64,000 bases of DNA. It comes from a virus (Duplodnaviria > Caudoviricetes). Below the pieces are notes generated by a model. That model was not told the origin of the DNA. It made no database searches and saw only the letters and a list, made by a program, of their open reading frames with translations. The stretch covers positions 1,336 to 65,335 of IMG/VR virus record IMGVR_UViG_3300025652_000060; one strand, 5' to 3'. How positions within the stretch are numbered: position 1 is the stretch's first letter; every line of letters begins with the position of its first letter. Below are positions 2,122-59,106 of the stretch, piece after piece. A program made the translations under genes and the position numbers.

Positions 2122-2538
2122 ATGGTTAACATTCTAAGGTTAAGTGACAGAGTTAAAGTTAAGGTTGGAAAGGTTACATTTCTTCTAGCGCCACTTTCAA
2201 ACGACAGAAAAAGAGAAATTGTTTCTTGCACGACTATGAGTGGCGGGACTTCTGTTTTTGATTATGCAAAAGCGCAACACCTCTATATTAAACATTCTTT
2301 AAAAGATGTTGAGGGTATTACTACTTATGATAATGAAAAATATGAACTTGATTTTGAGGGTGACTGTTTAACTGACGAATGCGTTTCGGATATTTTTACT
2401 ATTCCACAAAAACCCGAGCTAGTGTCATGCGCGTGGCAGATTCTAAGCGGCATACCTGATAAGGTTCTTAATGATGAGGGTAAGCCACTTAAAGGCGTTA
2501 CGTTGGAAGTGATAAGCTCACGGAGCAAGAAAAAATAA
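2122..2538 (+). CDS. Tail assembly chaperone (gpG-like)
   Basis: Between tail tube and tape measure; overlapping open -1 frame leads into the next ORF. Confidence 0.75.
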   Translation: MVNILRLSDRVKVKVGKVTFLLAPLSNDRKREIVSCTTMSGGTSVFDYAKAQHLYIKHSLKDVEGITTYDNEKYELDFEGDCLTDECVSDIFTIPQKPELVSCAWQILSGIPDKVLNDEGKPLKGVTLEVISSRSKKK

Positions 2539-2636
2539 GCCGCATCGTTAACCCGATAATAGACGCTTTATGTTTTAAGATCACAACTATTTCAGGCGTT
2601 ACCGATGCTGACTACATAGAAATTGTTTCAACTTTT

Positions 2637-3029
2637 ATGGTGGCCACTAACCATAATTTCAATTGCACCATGTGTAAGGCGAAATATCCGAGACAACCCG
2701 ATAAAAGAGACGCAATGTTTAAGCAAAAGAATTGCCGAACTGTTGCGCCTCAACCCTTGTTTGAATATCGCCCTACGCATTCAATGACCGGACACGCTGT
2801 TATAAAATACAGCACTTGCCCGCCTAATTTATTCAATTCCGGAACATTAAACTTGATTAACATGGTCAACAGTTTTGCAGAGGGATTAATGCCTTATAGT
2901 GGGGGACTATTGGAACAACCCGCGAAGTTTGTCGAGGTTATGGAATTAGTGCATAATTTAAAAGAAGAATACAACACCGAACAAACTAAAAAAATGGACA
3001 AATATAATGGCAAACGAGGTAAGCGTTGA
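2637..3029 (+). CDS. gpT-like C-terminal extension of the tail chaperone (probably made by -1 frameshift), Cys-rich
   Basis: -1 frame has no stop from about 2493 through this ORF; CxxC...C...CP motif shared with B. Confidence 0.65.
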   Translation: MVATNHNFNCTMCKAKYPRQPDKRDAMFKQKNCRTVAPQPLFEYRPTHSMTGHAVIKYSTCPPNLFNSGTLNLINMVNSFAEGLMPYSGGLLEQPAKFVEVMELVHNLKEEYNTEQTKKMDKYNGKRGKR

Positions 3030-4884
3030 AATTACCATTGAGGAAAAAGATGCTTTAAGAGCGTTGACTAAATTGACTCGGGGTATTGATACAACAACAG
3101 ACAAGGCAAGTAAGGGCGCTAAAAAAATGGACATGGCCTTTGCATCATTCGCGGGCAATCTTGCGGCGGGCGCAGCACTTAAAGGACTTGGGTTAATTAC
3201 TGACGGCGTGAAAGCCATGGTTTCACAAATTGGAACACTCACAGACGCCGCCAGTGTTCAAGAGGACGCAATAAACGACCTTAATAACGCTTTAGTCAGA
3301 GGCGGGGAATTCAGCAAGAAAACGTCTTTAGAAATGCAAAAGTTTGCAAGCGAATTGCAACAGGTCAGTAAGTTTGGTGACGAGGCTATACTTTCACAAA
3401 TGGCCTTCGCTCAATCAATGGGCGCAACGGGTGAACAATCAAAAACAGTTCTTGCGGCAGCGGCAGATATGGCAAGCGCATTAAACATTGATCTTAATAG
3501 CGCCGTCAGGAACATATCAAAAACACTAGGCGGTTACGCCGGGGAACTTGGTGAAGTAATACCGGAACTTAAAAACTTAACAGCGGAACAATTAAAAGCC
3601 GGGTTAGGTATTGACCTACTAGCGCAGAAATTCAAAGGCGCGGCAGAGTCACAAATTAGCACGTTCAGCGGAGCAATTGAACAGGCGTCAAACACGTTTG
3701 GTGACTTACAAGAAACTTTAGGTTTCACTATCACACAAAGCCCCGTTGTTATCGCAGCAATTAAAGGTTTATCAAAAGGCGTTCTTGCACTAGACGGAAT
3801 AGTTAAAGAAAATTCAGAGACAATAAGAAGTTACGCAGAGGGTGTTTTAATTGGTGCCTTAACAGGTGGTATAAACTTCGCGGGACAAGCTGTTATAAAA
3901 TTCAACGCTGTTCTAGTATCAACAAAAAACTTTATGAACTTCCTAGTAGACGGATCACTTGCGGCATTGCAAGGCCTCCAGGAATTTAGTGCGGGGCTTA
4001 TTGGTGCCGTCTCTAGTGTTCAAAACTTTCTAGGGTTATCAACAGAGGCCTCCGATTCATTACAAGCGTCAGTTTTAAGAAGTATAGAAGTTACAAAACT
4101 AGCTAGGCTTGCGAATGACGAGGAAGTGGCCAACAGAATAATGAGACAACAAGAACTTGCGGAAAACGTTACAATGGTAACGGAAACAATTAACACCGCA
4201 ATACTTTCAGAGGCTACCGTTAAAGAGGGAACTGATTTAAGAATTGTTCAGTCAGAAAAAAATAAACAGATACTATTAAAAAAGACTAGAGACGACGCAG
4301 AAAAAGCAAGACAGAAAGCCGCTGAACAAAACTTTCTGTTTCAAAAAGCTTGGGATAAACAAACACAAAAAGAAAAAGTTGCCTCACTTAAAGGCGCTTT
4401 AGGAACAATTGCTACATTACAACAGTCAGGATCTAAGGAAGGTTTTGCAATCGGTAAGGCAGCGGCAATTGCTGACCATGGAATTAATGCAGTTTCCGCC
4501 GTTTCAAAAGCTTTAGGATCCGCGCCGCCTCCGTTCAATTTTATTCTAGCGGGATTAGTAGGCGCAGCAATGGCAGTTCAAGGCGCTAAAATAGCAAGCG
4601 CGTCCCCTCCGGGTTTTGAAAATGGTGGTGTAGTCGGCGGCTTTACAGGCGCAAGCGCGGGGCCTGACAATGTTAATATCAATGCCCGTCGTGGTGAAAT
4701 GTTTTTGAATGCCTCACAACAACGTAACTTGTTTGACGATATTAATAACAGATCCACGGGAAGTAATGACGGCGAAACAATAGCGGCGTTAGTTAATCAA
4801 CCTATAATTCTACAAGTTGATAACAAGGAAATAGCACGGGCCGTAAGAAACGCGGAACGTGACGGCTTTCAGGTAGCAATATGA
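3007..4884 (+). CDS. Tape measure protein
   Basis: 625 aa, Ala/Gly-rich helical; C-terminal FENGGVVGG motif; position. Confidence 0.85.
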   Translation: MANEVSVEITIEEKDALRALTKLTRGIDTTTDKASKGAKKMDMAFASFAGNLAAGAALKGLGLITDGVKAMVSQIGTLTDAASVQEDAINDLNNALVRGGEFSKKTSLEMQKFASELQQVSKFGDEAILSQMAFAQSMGATGEQSKTVLAAAADMASALNIDLNSAVRNISKTLGGYAGELGEVIPELKNLTAEQLKAGLGIDLLAQKFKGAAESQISTFSGAIEQASNTFGDLQETLGFTITQSPVVIAAIKGLSKGVLALDGIVKENSETIRSYAEGVLIGALTGGINFAGQAVIKFNAVLVSTKNFMNFLVDGSLAALQGLQEFSAGLIGAVSSVQNFLGLSTEASDSLQASVLRSIEVTKLARLANDEEVANRIMRQQELAENVTMVTETINTAILSEATVKEGTDLRIVQSEKNKQILLKKTRDDAEKARQKAAEQNFLFQKAWDKQTQKEKVASLKGALGTIATLQQSGSKEGFAIGKAAAIADHGINAVSAVSKALGSAPPPFNFILAGLVGAAMAVQGAKIASASPPGFENGGVVGGFTGASAGPDNVNINARRGEMFLNASQQRNLFDDINNRSTGSNDGETIAALVNQPIILQVDNKEIARAVRNAERDGFQVAI

Positions 4885-55941: not shown

Positions 55942-56063
55942 GAACTGGAAAGCGATAGATCATTCGTGGCGCACAGGGCTGAGGGGTAAGTGTCAGGCTT
56001 GCTCAAGTAATAAATAAAAGATAACTTAAATCGTGCGGATCTAAAAAGTCCGCTCGCCTTCCT

Positions 56064-56122
56064 TGCGCAATGGGTTATGATGGCTTTCTTTCCAGTTTTC
56101 CGTCATGCCCTTTGCGTTTTTT
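56064..56122 (+). terminator. Intrinsic terminator with a large loop
   Basis: cgcaatgggttatgatgg/ccgtcatgccctttgcg stem plus T run. Confidence 0.7.
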
Positions 56123-56170
56123 GACTCTCCAGACTATTTCTCGTAGGATTTATGAATCAGGGAGAACTCC

Positions 56171-56785
56171 ATGAAAAACCAGTGTGAACGCATTGTTGAA
56201 ACAGAACTGCATAAATTAGTACCGCATCCAAAAAACCCCAATACGCATTCTGAGGAACAGATTGAGCGCCTAGCTAAATTAATAAGCTATCAAGGCTTTC
56301 GTTCTCCCATAGTCGTATCAAATCAATCGGGCTTTATAATCGTAGGGCACGGAAGGTTAGAAGCTGCAAAAGGCTTAGGGCTTGAAACGGTTCCAGTAAT
56401 ATACCAAGATTTTAAGGATGAGGCGCAAGAATACGCCCACATGACCGCTGACAATGCCATTGGCTCATGGTCTAAATTAGATTTCTCTCAGATTAATACG
56501 GATATTTTAGAACTCGGTCCTGAATTGAATATCGAACTTTTAGGTATAAAAGAATTCACAGTGGATCCAAGCGAGATAGAACTGCCAGATTTAAAGGCAG
56601 GCGATAACGGACCGTGTCAGAAAGTAACTTTTACCTTATCAGATGAACAGGTTGATAAGGTGAAGGAAGCAATGGAAAAGGCTAAATCTTTCGGACCGAT
56701 ACATGATGACCTAAATGAAAATTCAAACGGTAATGCCCTTGCGAGAGTGGCTGAATTATTTATAAGTAGCTGCGATGTCAGCTAA
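56171..56785 (+). CDS. ParB/Srx N-terminal domain protein
   Basis: PHPKNPN.H, GFRSPIVV, IVGHGRLEAA, ADN motifs. Confidence 0.85.
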   Translation: MKNQCERIVETELHKLVPHPKNPNTHSEEQIERLAKLISYQGFRSPIVVSNQSGFIIVGHGRLEAAKGLGLETVPVIYQDFKDEAQEYAHMTADNAIGSWSKLDFSQINTDILELGPELNIELLGIKEFTVDPSEIELPDLKAGDNGPCQKVTFTLSDEQVDKVKEAMEKAKSFGPIHDDLNENSNGNALARVAELFISSCDVS

Positions 56786-57404
56786 AAGCATTGAAATTAA
56801 ACCGATTAGCTCCAAGGATGCAAATGCGATCTGTAAAAGATTTCATTATTCTGGGAAAGTTGCTGCGATTTCACAGCTCCATTTTGGCGTTTTTTATAAG
56901 GGTCAATGTGAAGGGGTAATGCAATACGGACCGCCAATTGATAGGCGCAAGTTATTACCATTAGTTAAGGGCACAAAGTTTAATGATTTTCTTGAGCTTA
57001 ATCGAATGGCTTTCTCTGATAATCTCCCTAGGTTTTCAGAATCTAGAGCCATTGGAATCGCTCATCGAATTATTAAAAAGAATTATCCACATATTAAGTG
57101 GATCATATCGTTTGCAGACGCAACGCAATGCGGTGATGGGACAATCTATCGAGCCTCTAATTTTCTGCTAACTGCTATTAGAAAAAACTCTACTATCTAC
57201 AAATTGAAGGATGGTGAGGTAGCCGCCAAGCACGGTACGTCTAAGAAGGATTTTAATGGGGCTGAGAGGCTTGTTGGGTATCAGTTGCGATACATTTACT
57301 TCTTAGATCCAAAAATGCGGGAGAACCTAACTGTGCCAGTGATTCCGTATAGTGATATTGAAAGATTAGGCGCATCAATGTATAAAGGAAAAGTGCGTGG
57401 GTAG
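56775..57404 (+). CDS. mom: Mom-family DNA adenine modification (carbamoylmethylation) enzyme
   Basis: HYSGK, GVMQYG, LELNRM, SESRAI, ISFADATQ..DGTIYRASNF motifs typical of Mom-like GNAT proteins. Confidence 0.8.
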   Translation: MSAKSIEIKPISSKDANAICKRFHYSGKVAAISQLHFGVFYKGQCEGVMQYGPPIDRRKLLPLVKGTKFNDFLELNRMAFSDNLPRFSESRAIGIAHRIIKKNYPHIKWIISFADATQCGDGTIYRASNFLLTAIRKNSTIYKLKDGEVAAKHGTSKKDFNGAERLVGYQLRYIYFLDPKMRENLTVPVIPYSDIERLGASMYKGKVRG

Positions 57405-57469
57405 TTTAAAAGTAAAACAGACTAATTCCATTAGTAAGAAAGCGGTGCATTACCGACTTCCACGCTCCA
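57395..57469 (+). tRNA. Atypical tRNA-Gly(UCC), probably non-proteinogenic
   Basis: Acceptor GCGTGGG/TCCACGC, discriminator T, encoded CCA; D stem GTTT/AAAC; anticodon TCC at 57427-57429; T loop TGCATTA; no D-loop GG. Confidence 0.8.
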
Positions 57470-57488
57470 TTATAATCCCGAGATATTT

Positions 57489-57848
57489 ATGAGCGATGAA
57501 AAAGATTTAGGCGGTAGACCTAGAATAGAAATTGATATGGCTGAACTTGATAAGCTCTGCACTTTGCAGGCGACCATTGAGGAAATGGCATCATGGTTTG
57601 ACTGCTCAATTGATACGGTAGAGAGAAGAATTAAAGAGCATTCTGGTAAAGGATTTGCGGAGTATTTCGCACTAAAGAGAGGAAAGGGTAAGATATCCCT
57701 TAGAAGAAAGCAGTTCGAAACCGCCATGAGTGGAAACGTAACCATGCAAATCTTTCTAGGGAAAAACTACTTAGGGCAATCCGATAAGCAAGAAATAGAT
57801 CATAAGGTTTCTGAAATCAAAATTTCTGGCGACGATGGAGACCTCTGA
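57489..57848 (+). CDS. Terminase small subunit (different family from A)
   Basis: GRP, HTH, SLRRKQFETA..GNVTMQIFLGKNYLGQ.D. Confidence 0.85.
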   Translation: MSDEKDLGGRPRIEIDMAELDKLCTLQATIEEMASWFDCSIDTVERRIKEHSGKGFAEYFALKRGKGKISLRRKQFETAMSGNVTMQIFLGKNYLGQSDKQEIDHKVSEIKISGDDGDL

Positions 57849-59106
57849 GGGATTTAAAAAAACCCTTATTCAAGTTAAGGCGATTACGCTTCTAGCGGGT
57901 CATGCTCTCCACAATATGCTTTATGGTGGATCCAGATCTGGGAAAACTTTTATCCTATGCTATGCGGTTATTCTAAGAGCCTGCAAAACTAAATCAAGGC
58001 ATTGCATTTTAAGATTAAAATTTAATCATGCGAAAAGAGCCATCTGGTTAGATACAATTCCAAAAGTAATGAGCATCTGCTTTCCAGACCTTACTTATAA
58101 AACTAATTCCACTGATTATTATATCGTGCTGCCTAATGGCTCAGAGATCTGGGTCGGTGGATTGGATGATAAGAAACGAGTGGAGAAAATTCTGGGGAAT
58201 GAATACTCTACTCTTTATTTTAACGAGTGTTCTGAAATTCCTTTAAGCTCTATTAATATTGCCCTTACTAGATTGGCTGAAAAGAATTCACTAGTTAAAA
58301 AGGTTTACTATGATGAGAACCCACCAAGCAAAAAACATTGGAGCTATTGGCTCTTTATAAAATTTTGGCATCCGGAGGCTGAGGAAGAATTAGACCCTGC
58401 AGATTATTCCTGCATGGTGATGAACCCTAAGGATAATCTTGAGAATATAGATCCTGATTACATAAAGAATATTTTAAGCAAGCTACCCGAAAACGAACGC
58501 ATCCGCTTCCTCAATGGTGAGTTTGTGGACGGGGACGATGGGGTCACTTACTACGAATTCGACCGTGAAATCCATACAAGTTCTGAGGCTATACAAAGAC
58601 CAGGTACTACTTTCATAGGGATGGACTTTAACGTAGATCCTATGACGGCGGTTCTGTTTCAATTCTACAATAATACTATCTGGGTTTTCGATGAGATATT
58701 CCTTCGCAATTCCGATACCCCTAAAATGTGTAAAGAATTAAAACGTAGAGGGTATGCGGGGCTAAAAGTTATCCCTGATTCTACAGGTGGAAATAGGAAA
58801 ACGTCAGGTAGATCTGACTTTGAAATACTAAAGGAAAATGGTTTTGTATGCGAGAATGTTTATAACCCTTTCGTAACTGACCGAGTTAATAACCTGAATA
58901 GACTTTTAGCAGCTAATCGCATTATGATTAATCCTAAGTGTAATAAACTTATCAACGATCTTGAACAGGTCGCTTGGAAAGATAATAAACTAGATCAAAA
59001 GGGCGAATCGAAGCTCTTGACCCATATTTCTGACTGCCTAGGTTATGGTGCTTGGAAAATGGAGCCAATAGTCGGCAAATCAAAACGAGCAATAAGGTTA
59101 AGTTAA
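57835..59106 (+). CDS. Terminase large subunit
   Basis: Close homolog of 22661. Confidence 0.92.
   Translation: METSEGFKKTLIQVKAITLLAGHALHNMLYGGSRSGKTFILCYAVILRACKTKSRHCILRLKFNHAKRAIWLDTIPKVMSICFPDLTYKTNSTDYYIVLPNGSEIWVGGLDDKKRVEKILGNEYSTLYFNECSEIPLSSINIALTRLAEKNSLVKKVYYDENPPSKKHWSYWLFIKFWHPEAEEELDPADYSCMVMNPKDNLENIDPDYIKNILSKLPENERIRFLNGEFVDGDDGVTYYEFDREIHTSSEAIQRPGTTFIGMDFNVDPMTAVLFQFYNNTIWVFDEIFLRNSDTPKMCKELKRRGYAGLKVIPDSTGGNRKTSGRSDFEILKENGFVCENVYNPFVTDRVNNLNRLLAANRIMINPKCNKLINDLEQVAWKDNKLDQKGESKLLTHISDCLGYGAWKMEPIVGKSKRAIRLS

Follow-up and report, generated by a model that had tools for sequence, protein, structure and literature searches.

Why should a phage gene for a DNA-modifying enzyme run, at its very end, into something that looks like a transfer RNA (tRNA) for glycine? 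The question is raised by a 64,000-nucleotide (nt) stretch of DNA, hereafter the window, which covers positions 1,336 to 65,335 of the Caudoviricetes virus record IMGVR_UViG_3300025652_000060, nearly all of a record of 65,335 bases that is rated complete. In it a gene of the Mom family overlaps, at its 3' end, a 75-nt tRNA-Gly-like RNA element. The Mom protein of phage Mu has been reported to move glycine from Gly-tRNAGly to N6 of deoxyadenosine (dA), the product then rearranging to the carbamoylmethyl form (Silva et al., Nat Commun 2026, PMC13219725), and this report bears out the glycine donor that a first-pass annotation of this DNA, made from the letters alone, had named for Mu Mom. The same annotation had proposed that the phage supplies a private glycine carrier for its enzyme, an interpretation that the comparisons presented here support. 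They show that the element belongs to a real and widespread RNA family, largely invisible to standard annotation, and we put at roughly 0.6 the probability that the RNA is a dedicated, non-ribosomal glycyl carrier for Mom.

The first 10 nt of the element are the last codons and the stop of mom, the UAG at 57402-57404 being U8-A9-G10 of the RNA (the arms are given in Table 1). All that had been listed for it at the outset, namely a 75-nt cloverleaf at the 3' end of mom with particular acceptor pairs, U73, CCA, a UCC anticodon and oddities in the D and T loops, was found in the sequence. In the T loop UGC replaces UUC, G55 stands for U55, and A58 is absent. The minimum-energy structure predicted by RNAfold is the cloverleaf (-18.5 kcal/mol, z = -2.61, with 1 of 200 shuffles as stable). 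It had also been anticipated that tRNA scanners might miss this RNA, and they do: ARAGORN reports zero tRNAs in the whole 64-kb window, and the Rfam tRNA model (RF00005) has no match at E <= 10 in 57200-57700. Taken alone, the fold and the features of this single copy would be suggestive but weak. The RNA lies far beyond chance because a covariance model (R1), built from 23 relatives on other contigs, matches exactly this stretch, 57395-57469, with 57.6 bits and E 1e-11, its sole match in the window. Set against canonical tRNA, the window RNA has the cloverleaf and the covariation and falls below the thresholds of the scanner and of RF00005; the universal tertiary and decoding set (G18G19, U54-U55-C56, A58, U33 and a 7-nt loop) is incomplete overall, the window copy keeping U33 and the 7-nt loop, and the bacterial identity set for glycyl-tRNA synthetase (GlyRS), G1-C72, C2-G71, U73, C35 and C36, is complete.

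The enzyme itself is readily placed. The open reading frame (ORF) at 56775-57404, called Mom-like from its translation, matches Pfam PF25680 with 171.4 bits (cut-off 27.1; E 2.5e-50) over profile positions 2-201 of 202, phrog_1384 with E 1.2e-49, and PDB 8bv8, the Mu Mom structure, with E 6.7e-23, and its product is 36.9% identical to SfMu Mom; by these profile matches the gene is a member of the Mom family. In the phmmer alignment R77 (ELNR) and S90 (SESR) stand opposite positions 102 (R) and 115 (A) of the 8bv8 chain, and both residues are invariant in an alignment of nine Mom relatives. A numbering offset of 9 fits both R111 and S124A, by which R77 and S90 would be the counterparts of Mu Mom R111 and S124, two residues reported to be essential (PMC13219725). 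Transfer of glycine to N6 of dA is thus the predicted activity of the window protein.

Relatives were gathered through the Mom protein. A search with it gave 12 loci in IMG/VR, and a search of IMG/VR with an alignment of nine Mom proteins gave 457 viral relatives. From these the best 80 were taken, 7 of which repeat contigs of the first 12; species-representative genomes gave 140 Mom relatives, again cut to the best 80. The window, 85 IMG/VR loci and 80 genome loci make up 166 sources (single loci are referred to below by L and a number). The genome loci are prophage-like regions from many bacterial phyla, with titles naming Bradyrhizobium, Micavibrio, Gallibacterium, Limnohabitans, Larkinella, Treponema and many Bacillota, and further Planctomycetota, Actinomycetota, Verrucomicrobia and other metagenome-assembled genomes (MAGs). 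A common pattern is seen in the DNA 3' of the Mom matches, in which GCG and four free bases are followed by a T arm and then by the four complementary bases and CGC-U-CCA, and a blind scan for a 7-bp helix with NCCA near the Mom ends recovers the element in most loci. R1, for which the cloverleaf was drawn over 23 gap-free 76-nt copies (alignment A3), was run over both strands of the window and the 85 viral loci (350 kb), with 85 matches, every one on the strand that carries Mom, and gives 70 matches in the 80 genome loci; a second covariance model (R2), built from the genome-locus matches, adds elements in L023 and L118. The element is present in 85 of the 86 phage-set sources and 71 of the 80 genome loci, or 156 of 166, counts that are not independent events because many of the loci are related, and no model match at E <= 0.1 occurs elsewhere in the approximately 620 kb searched. 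The first-pass annotation had suggested looking for a recurrent, covarying tRNA-Gly 3' of mom homologs, and such a family is what emerged, with strong covariation and with G55 as its majority state. Among the ten sources that lack the element, L067 and L096 break off 2 and 32 nt past the Mom match, and the other eight have enough sequence. One of these eight, L111 from a Tenericutes-labelled MAG, holds a 60-nt tRNA-like stretch (2225-2284) 32 nt after mom, with 14.9 bits and E 0.15, which has an acceptor stem, a D arm, a T arm and almost no anticodon arm, ends in ACCA, and may be a decayed or further reduced relative.

The structure is conserved through changes on both sides of its helices. 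In A3, a MAFFT alignment of 23 rows that was not fitted to the model, 96.5% of the cells are paired, compared with 35-44% in slid controls, and 15 of 21 pairs change both sides; the corresponding values are 96.9%, 33-43% and 17 of 21 in A4 (60 distinct rows) and 98.1%, 36-47% and 19 of 21 in A5 (66 distinct rows), where A4 and A5 lean towards the structure, being model-fitted, and the first set had been chosen for a paired acceptor helix. From a plain MAFFT alignment of 91 copies RNAalifold recovers the acceptor, anticodon and bulged T stems, with compensatory changes in 12 of 15 pairs. Acceptor pairs 4-7 covary across the family, as does the D stem where it is present (GCAU/AUGC, GUGU/ACAC, GCAA/UUGC). 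On this comparative evidence the element is an RNA under structural selection.

The association with mom is close. The element starts at a distance of at most 30 nt from the end of the closest upstream Mom match in 123 of the 155 plus-strand copies, 31-100 nt in 26, 101-300 nt in 2 and more than 300 nt in 4, which places 149 of 155 within 100 nt. In L123, one of the four most distant cases, a 250-amino-acid (aa) ORF on the opposite strand (2306-3058, minus) separates mom from the element. Tandem Mom paralogs are found in 13 loci, 12 Bacillota by title (L132, L139, L152, L154, L158-L161, L169, L171-L173) and the viral contig L077, where the second Mom match is weak (24% identity); in all of them the element follows the second copy only. 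L081 carries two different elements head to tail, at 2286-2354 and 2356-2423, 1 nt apart, and in L131 the element (2163-2236) lies on the minus strand just after mom. Among cultured phages 285 records have a Mom-like match, and one of these is close, Psychrobacter phage vB_PmaS_Y8A, with 60% identity. Its gene order is ParB, Mom (annotated as hypothetical), a gap and the small terminase, and the unannotated gap is filled by two different tandem elements (L174; 3156-3223 and 3228-3296, 4 nt apart). In Microbacterium phage Appa (L183; 25.5% identity) a ParB gene and a Mom-like gene precede an annotated tRNA-Gly(ccc), which lies at 2163-2237 on the minus strand. A 19.7-bit match (E 0.034) in phage Melnitz-2, about 1 kb upstream of its Mom-like gene, was treated as noise.

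Overlap between a gene and an RNA raises the question of which of the two is being conserved. Of the 123 distinct plus-strand copies, 76 are crossed from end to end by the Mom frame, 17 contain its stop (in 9 of these at RNA position 8, as U8-A9-G10, the arrangement of the window) and 30 lie beyond its stop; the frame therefore enters or crosses the element in 93 of 123, and to call the RNA downstream of the gene would be incomplete. The conserved nucleotides might on this account encode a C-terminal Mom peptide, ..GG[A/S]xPTxxL[Q/H].., with the RNA no more than a by-product of coding, and indeed 59 of the 76 read-through copies use the one frame that gives this tail, and across the 124 distinct elements (all R1 matches, the 123 plus-strand copies and the minus-strand L131) that register is stop-free in 85, against 51 and 57 for the other two. 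Shared ancestry may suffice to explain the frame bias. Where the T arm and 3' acceptor strand are untranslated (43 copies), the acceptor is 100% paired and the T stem 96.4%; where they are read in frame 0 (60 copies), the values are 99.3% and 99.7%; in the 20 copies read in either of the remaining frames, they are 98.9-100% and 100%. Because the structure is the same whether and however it is translated, the conserved nucleotides are conserved as RNA, and the peptide was rejected as the cause of conservation, pairing and key nucleotides being equal in translated and untranslated copies. The window Mom, moreover, terminates at position 10 of the RNA, the tail lies beyond the Pfam Mom domain, and selection on protein cannot give compensatory changes between codons that are some 20 codons apart, all of which leaves the peptide a scarcely credible explanation.

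Of the 126 distinct rows, every one has G1-C72 and C2-G71, and 120 have G3-C70. Among the 124 distinct elements 122 have U as discriminator, none lacks CC in the hairpin loop, and 104 encode their own CCA (102 UCCA, 2 ACCA), the remainder ending like tRNA genes that depend on CCA addition. The bulged nucleotide on the 3' strand of the T stem is likewise kept, being present in 120 of 124 (A in 99, U in 18, C in 2 and none in 4 of the 123 plus-strand copies, and A in L131). U33, in contrast, occurs in only 42 of 124, 64 have A and 48 have U at position 34, the anticodon loop has 7 nt in 83, 6 in 25, 8 in 13 and 5 in 3, and in 43 the D region is 8-9 nt long with no D arm. At T-loop position 55 G prevails over U, and the commonest T-loop starts are TGCA (28), GGCA (23), TTCA (14), TGCG (11) and TTCG (10). 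The bacterial glycine identity set is G1-C72, C2-G71, U73, C35 and C36 (Giege and Eriani review, PMC9976931; PMC7826273), in keeping with the first-pass annotation, which had named U73, C2-G71 and C35/C36. Judged by this set, the charging determinants have been retained selectively while decoding determinants were lost. Four distinct elements (L062, L078, L085, L143) have G3-U70 in place of G3-C70, and L105 and L136 have C3-G70. G3-U70 is the main alanine identity mark, and the four copies that carry it might be at risk of, or used for, alanine charging.

The window RNA shares with canonical bacterial tRNA-Gly (RF00005) the cloverleaf, the GCG/CGC acceptor ends, U73, CCA and an NCC anticodon, and differs from it in the missing G18G19, in a G where U55 is usual, and in the bulge of its T stem; members of the family have often lost U33, the 7-nt loop or the D arm as well. 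Of 110 loci that bear the element, ARAGORN calls it in 9, as Gly in 5 and as '???' in 4, so that whenever it names an amino acid that amino acid is Gly (5/5), and the Rfam tRNA threshold is reached in 3 of 18 related loci, L024 and L170 among them. When the family model is applied to three E. coli tRNA loci, tRNA-Gly reaches 43-58.6 bits (glyU 58.6), Thr 31-39 and Tyr 9.6; the E. coli tRNA-Gly genes share the GCG.../...CGC-U-CCA ends and have no T-stem bulge. The model is thus not specific to the Mom-linked form, and genome-wide matches need the bulge or Mom adjacency to discriminate. A single Bradyrhizobium genome has three non-canonical copies of 70 nt, each overlapping the 3' end of a separate Mom gene, and two other model matches checked there are ordinary tRNA-Gly; further family-model matches in it score 44.1 bits (five) and 42 bits (two). 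The forms run from near-canonical tRNA-Gly (L024, L170) to 68-nt D-armless RNAs, and this continuum suggests that the family descended from tRNA-Gly.

On another reading the element is an ordinary phage tRNA-Gly(UCC) that supplements the translation of GGN codons and lies beside mom incidentally. The window copy, with its 7-nt loop, U33, UCC and A37, would suit that role, as would the few near-canonical relatives that pass the Rfam tRNA threshold and the tRNA-Gly(ccc) annotated beside the Mom-like gene of Appa. A decoding tRNA should not, however, escape both ARAGORN and Rfam, lack G18G19 and A58, and carry G55 and a bulged T stem, as the window copy does, nor should its family fail to conserve U33, loop length and the D arm; ARAGORN finds no other tRNA in the window, and linkage to Mom in 156 of 166 sources is not incidental. 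We regard a decoding role as very unlikely.

A carrier role accommodates both the retained and the lost features. The RNA would be transcribed together with mom, RNase P would cut it at G1, and its 3' end would be trimmed to the encoded CCA, or CCA would be added where it is unencoded. Host GlyRS would then charge it with glycine, a step proposed because G1-C72, C2-G71, G3-C70, U73, C35 and C36 are kept, and Mom would move the glycyl group from the 3' end of the RNA to the N6 position of adenines in the phage's own DNA, just as host Gly-tRNAGly serves Mu Mom. The RNA would stay outside translation, having lost features needed by EF-Tu and the ribosome (no G18G19, G55, the T-stem bulge and, often, no U33, 7-nt loop or D arm), and with the decoding features gone the glycine that it holds would form a private pool not competing with protein synthesis. 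Excision, charging, poor use by EF-Tu and the ribosome, and use by Mom are steps that we infer from the pattern of conservation. As a conjecture, the T-stem bulge could be an EF-Tu antideterminant or a determinant for Mom; the bulge lies in the 3' strand, a region that work cited in PMC7826273 is reported to tie to EF-Tu binding specificity.

The same RNA might instead act in cis, as an RNase P or other tRNA-processing site by which the operon message is cut or stabilised, as a limiter of Mom synthesis, since a cut at G1 would take away the stop codon and give a non-stop message, or as a site at which Mom binds its own mRNA. Mu holds mom under tight control, and the layout of the window is that of a transcript element: a small-terminase-like gene starts 19 nt past the CCA, which shows the RNA to sit within an operon, no terminator-like site lies between the two in the window, and, as described above, the Mom frame enters or crosses the RNA in 93 of 123 copies, with the window stop at U8-A9-G10. 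A processing signal, though, needs the shape of the acceptor and T arm, not a near-invariant U73, C35C36 in the loop, or G1-C72, C2-G71 and G3-C70; the 20 of 124 copies without an encoded CCA keep the discriminator, as ordinary tRNA genes do; and both the tandem copies (L081, Psychrobacter phage Y8A) and those on the opposite strand (L131, Appa) fit an RNA acting in trans. Processing and donor roles are not exclusive, and we consider a purely cis-acting element unlikely. It is less likely still that the RNA gives up no glycine and acts by binding to Mom or to a host factor, either as a decoy for tRNA-targeting defences or as an uncharged mimic that keeps Mom switched off until late in infection. 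The link with Mom and the likeness to tRNA-Gly would fit such a role, and GNAT toxins that target tRNA-Gly are described (PMC13219725), but a decoy for an anticodon nuclease should keep a normal loop, and here loop size and position 33 vary, while conservation of the full charging identity set and of CCA points to aminoacylation.

Besides the leaning of the alignments and the relatedness of the loci noted above, several observations weigh against a private glycyl carrier. With filters off, no element was found in the related loci L108, L110, L111, L115, L138, L165, L167 and L168. No credible element was found in the gene flanks searched in 14 cultured phages with Mom-like genes of 25-37% identity (SfMu, GEC_PNG14, Q69, Alsa_2, NotEvenPhaged, Zartrosa, Melnitz-2, P12002L, MKC-IRE-02, SRH2, Maureen, Stickynote, Thornton and LP-031), and because the Mu-like SfMu and 13 other phages have no such RNA nearby, Mom chemistry as such needs no private carrier. 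The window copy itself keeps U33, the 7-nt loop, UCC and A37, which are compatible with decoding. In 93 of the 123 distinct copies a cut at G1 would deprive the mom message of its stop codon, and the overlap of frame and RNA would suit regulation no less than it suits a cofactor. Some regulatory coupling of the RNA and mom is therefore likely, and could even be its main role. The private RNA marks one large Mom subfamily, not every Mom-like gene. In the fullest form of the carrier hypothesis, a widespread Mom subfamily brings its own tRNA-Gly-derived cofactor gene, charged by GlyRS and orthogonal to EF-Tu and the ribosome, in some cases a D-armless RNA of 68-70 nt, and each transcript would yield either Mom or carrier, since excision at G1 strips the stop, so that carrier supply would be coupled to self-limitation of a toxic enzyme; in our judgement the odds for this combined account are about even.

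The element sits in a compact cassette (Table 1), in the order ParB_N gene, mom and RNA, with the ParB_N gene overlapping the start of mom by 11 nt. In 146 of 156 related loci, those with at least 400 nt of upstream sequence, a homolog with the ParB domain lies immediately 5' of mom on the same strand. The ParB-Mom pairing is seen also in Psychrobacter phage vB_PmaS_Y8A and Microbacterium phage Appa, and in Arthrobacter phage Zartrosa a ParB gene lies one small gene further upstream of the Mom-like gene. A blastn search with 56000-58500 gave no match in the cultured-phage collection. Sequencing runs listed for the stretch were 6 of DNA and none of RNA, which bears neither way on its expression. 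Downstream of the element, L097 has a G+C-rich hairpin and T run resembling an intrinsic terminator a few bases past the CCA (just after 1466), and L122, from a Micavibrio MAG, has a fluoride riboswitch (RF01734; 2726-2786, minus; 61.5 bits, E 1.2e-14) about 450 nt away, which is probably unrelated to the cassette.

Table 1. Genes of the mom cassette and arms of the tRNA-Gly-like RNA, in positions of the window.
Feature	Positions	Strand	Basis and remarks
ParB N-terminal-domain gene, 204 aa	56171-56785	+	Pfam ParB_N E 1.8e-08; PHROG ParB-like families
Mom-family GNAT gene, 209 aa	56775-57404	+	Pfam PF25680, phrog_1384, PDB 8bv8; predicted Gly-tRNA-dependent N6-adenine DNA modifier
tRNA-Gly-like RNA, 75 nt	57395-57469	+	sequence, cloverleaf fold, covariance model R1
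Acceptor stem, 5' strand GCGUGGG	57395-57401	+	pairs with 57459-57465: G1-C72, C2-G71, G3-C70, U-A, G-C, G-C, G-U
D arm: stem GUUU/AAAC, 7-nt loop AAAAGUA without G18G19	57404-57418	+	sequence, fold
Anticodon arm: loop AUUCCAU, U33, UCC at 57427-57429, A37	57420-57436	+	sequence
T arm: stem AGCGG/CCG-A-CU, bulged A at 57456, loop UGCAUUA	57441-57458	+	sequence, fold
Acceptor stem, 3' strand UCCACGC, discriminator U73 at 57466, encoded CCA at 57467-57469	57459-57469	+	sequence
Small-terminase-like gene, 119 aa	57489-57848	+	PHROG terminase small subunit families E 1.3e-05
Large terminase gene, 423 aa	57835-59106	+	Pfam Terminase_6N, Terminase_3; phrog_2

The nearest known system is that of Mu. 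All three E. coli tRNA-Gly isoacceptors are reported to serve Mu Mom and mischarged Gly-tRNAAla does not, so that Mom reads the tRNA and not glycine alone; the authors of that study suspect recognition near the acceptor end and note that drawing on the host's translation machinery may do harm (PMC13219725). The enzyme family is the same here, with the residues reported to be essential kept, and the predicted donor is again a glycyl ester on an acceptor end of the tRNA-Gly type (GCG.../...CGC-U-CCA). The two differ in that Mu uses host tRNA-Gly, with no such RNA near the mom gene of SfMu, whereas here the candidate donor has a non-canonical structure and comes from the same cassette as the enzyme, whose stop codon lies within it. 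The main text of that paper, to which this statement is confined, makes no mention of an encoded tRNA, of tRNA-like or pseudo forms, of ParB or of Dehalococcoides.

A closer analogy for the RNA itself is found in the staphylococcal cell wall. In line with the parallel drawn in the first-pass annotation, it is in print that the non-proteogenic tRNAGly of staphylococci have TGC or TGT for TTC in the T loop and are weakly sequestered by EF-Tu, and that FmhB uses them preferentially (Rietmeyer et al., NAR 2021, PMC7826273). Like these carriers, which serve FmhB, FemA and FemB, the Mom-linked RNAs keep the GlyRS determinants and would be dedicated to a non-ribosomal transferase; the TGC or TGT of the staphylococcal T loops has its parallel in UGC in the window and the G55 majority in the family, and EF-Tu binding, reported to be weak there, is predicted to be weak here. 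The staphylococcal tRNAs, however, are chromosomal and full-size, belong to one lineage, are found by scanners and feed peptidoglycan synthesis, whereas the Mom-linked RNAs are of phage or prophage origin, fused to the enzyme gene, often D-armless (68-70 nt), have a T-stem bulge and would feed DNA modification. They are analogues, not members, of the staphylococcal NP1-NP3 lineage. A more distant likeness is offered by plant viral RNAs, which have aminoacylatable tRNA-like structures with a pseudoknotted acceptor at genome 3' ends. There too a viral RNA segment that mimics a tRNA ends in CCA; the RNA described here has instead a plain 7-bp acceptor stem, lies inside a DNA-phage operon and is tied to one enzyme.

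One earlier sighting may concern the same kind of locus. In the ssrA islands of Dehalococcoides a conserved 76-bp tRNA-Gly-like locus was described in the first 150 bp of a mom homolog, following a ParB-domain gene and labelled 'pseudo-tRNA' by pipelines, with no function proposed in the account given there (McMurdie et al., BMC Genomics 2011, PMC3146451), the tRNA dependence of Mom being then unknown. Compared by description, the two cases are alike in having a tRNA-Gly-like locus that overlaps a mom homolog after a ParB-domain gene and is mislabelled by annotation; the position differs, at the 5' end of mom in Dehalococcoides and at the 3' end here. Beyond that paper we found no published link of Mom to a tRNA-like RNA of its own in a literature search outside of which lay supplementary files that are possibly relevant, and as far as the search shows, a functional link of the RNA to the glycine chemistry of Mom would be new.

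The use of Gly-tRNAGly by Mom was established only recently, and the family described here exposes a gap in annotation around it: most copies escape tRNA scanners and Rfam, and the ORFs drawn by gene callers extend through the element. Presence of the RNA could help to predict which Mom-like genes perform glycine chemistry, and Psychrobacter phage vB_PmaS_Y8A, a cultured carrier of two copies, makes the question directly testable. The RNAs, 68-76 nt long and in some cases without a D arm, are natural minimal substrates for what GlyRS, EF-Tu and Mom read. If the carrier reading is true, the family would be the phage counterpart of the staphylococcal cell-wall tRNAs and the first enzyme-linked, dedicated aminoacyl carrier for DNA modification, and tRNA-dependent DNA hypermodification would be, in these phages, a self-contained system with a private glycine pool and not a mere scavenging of host tRNA.

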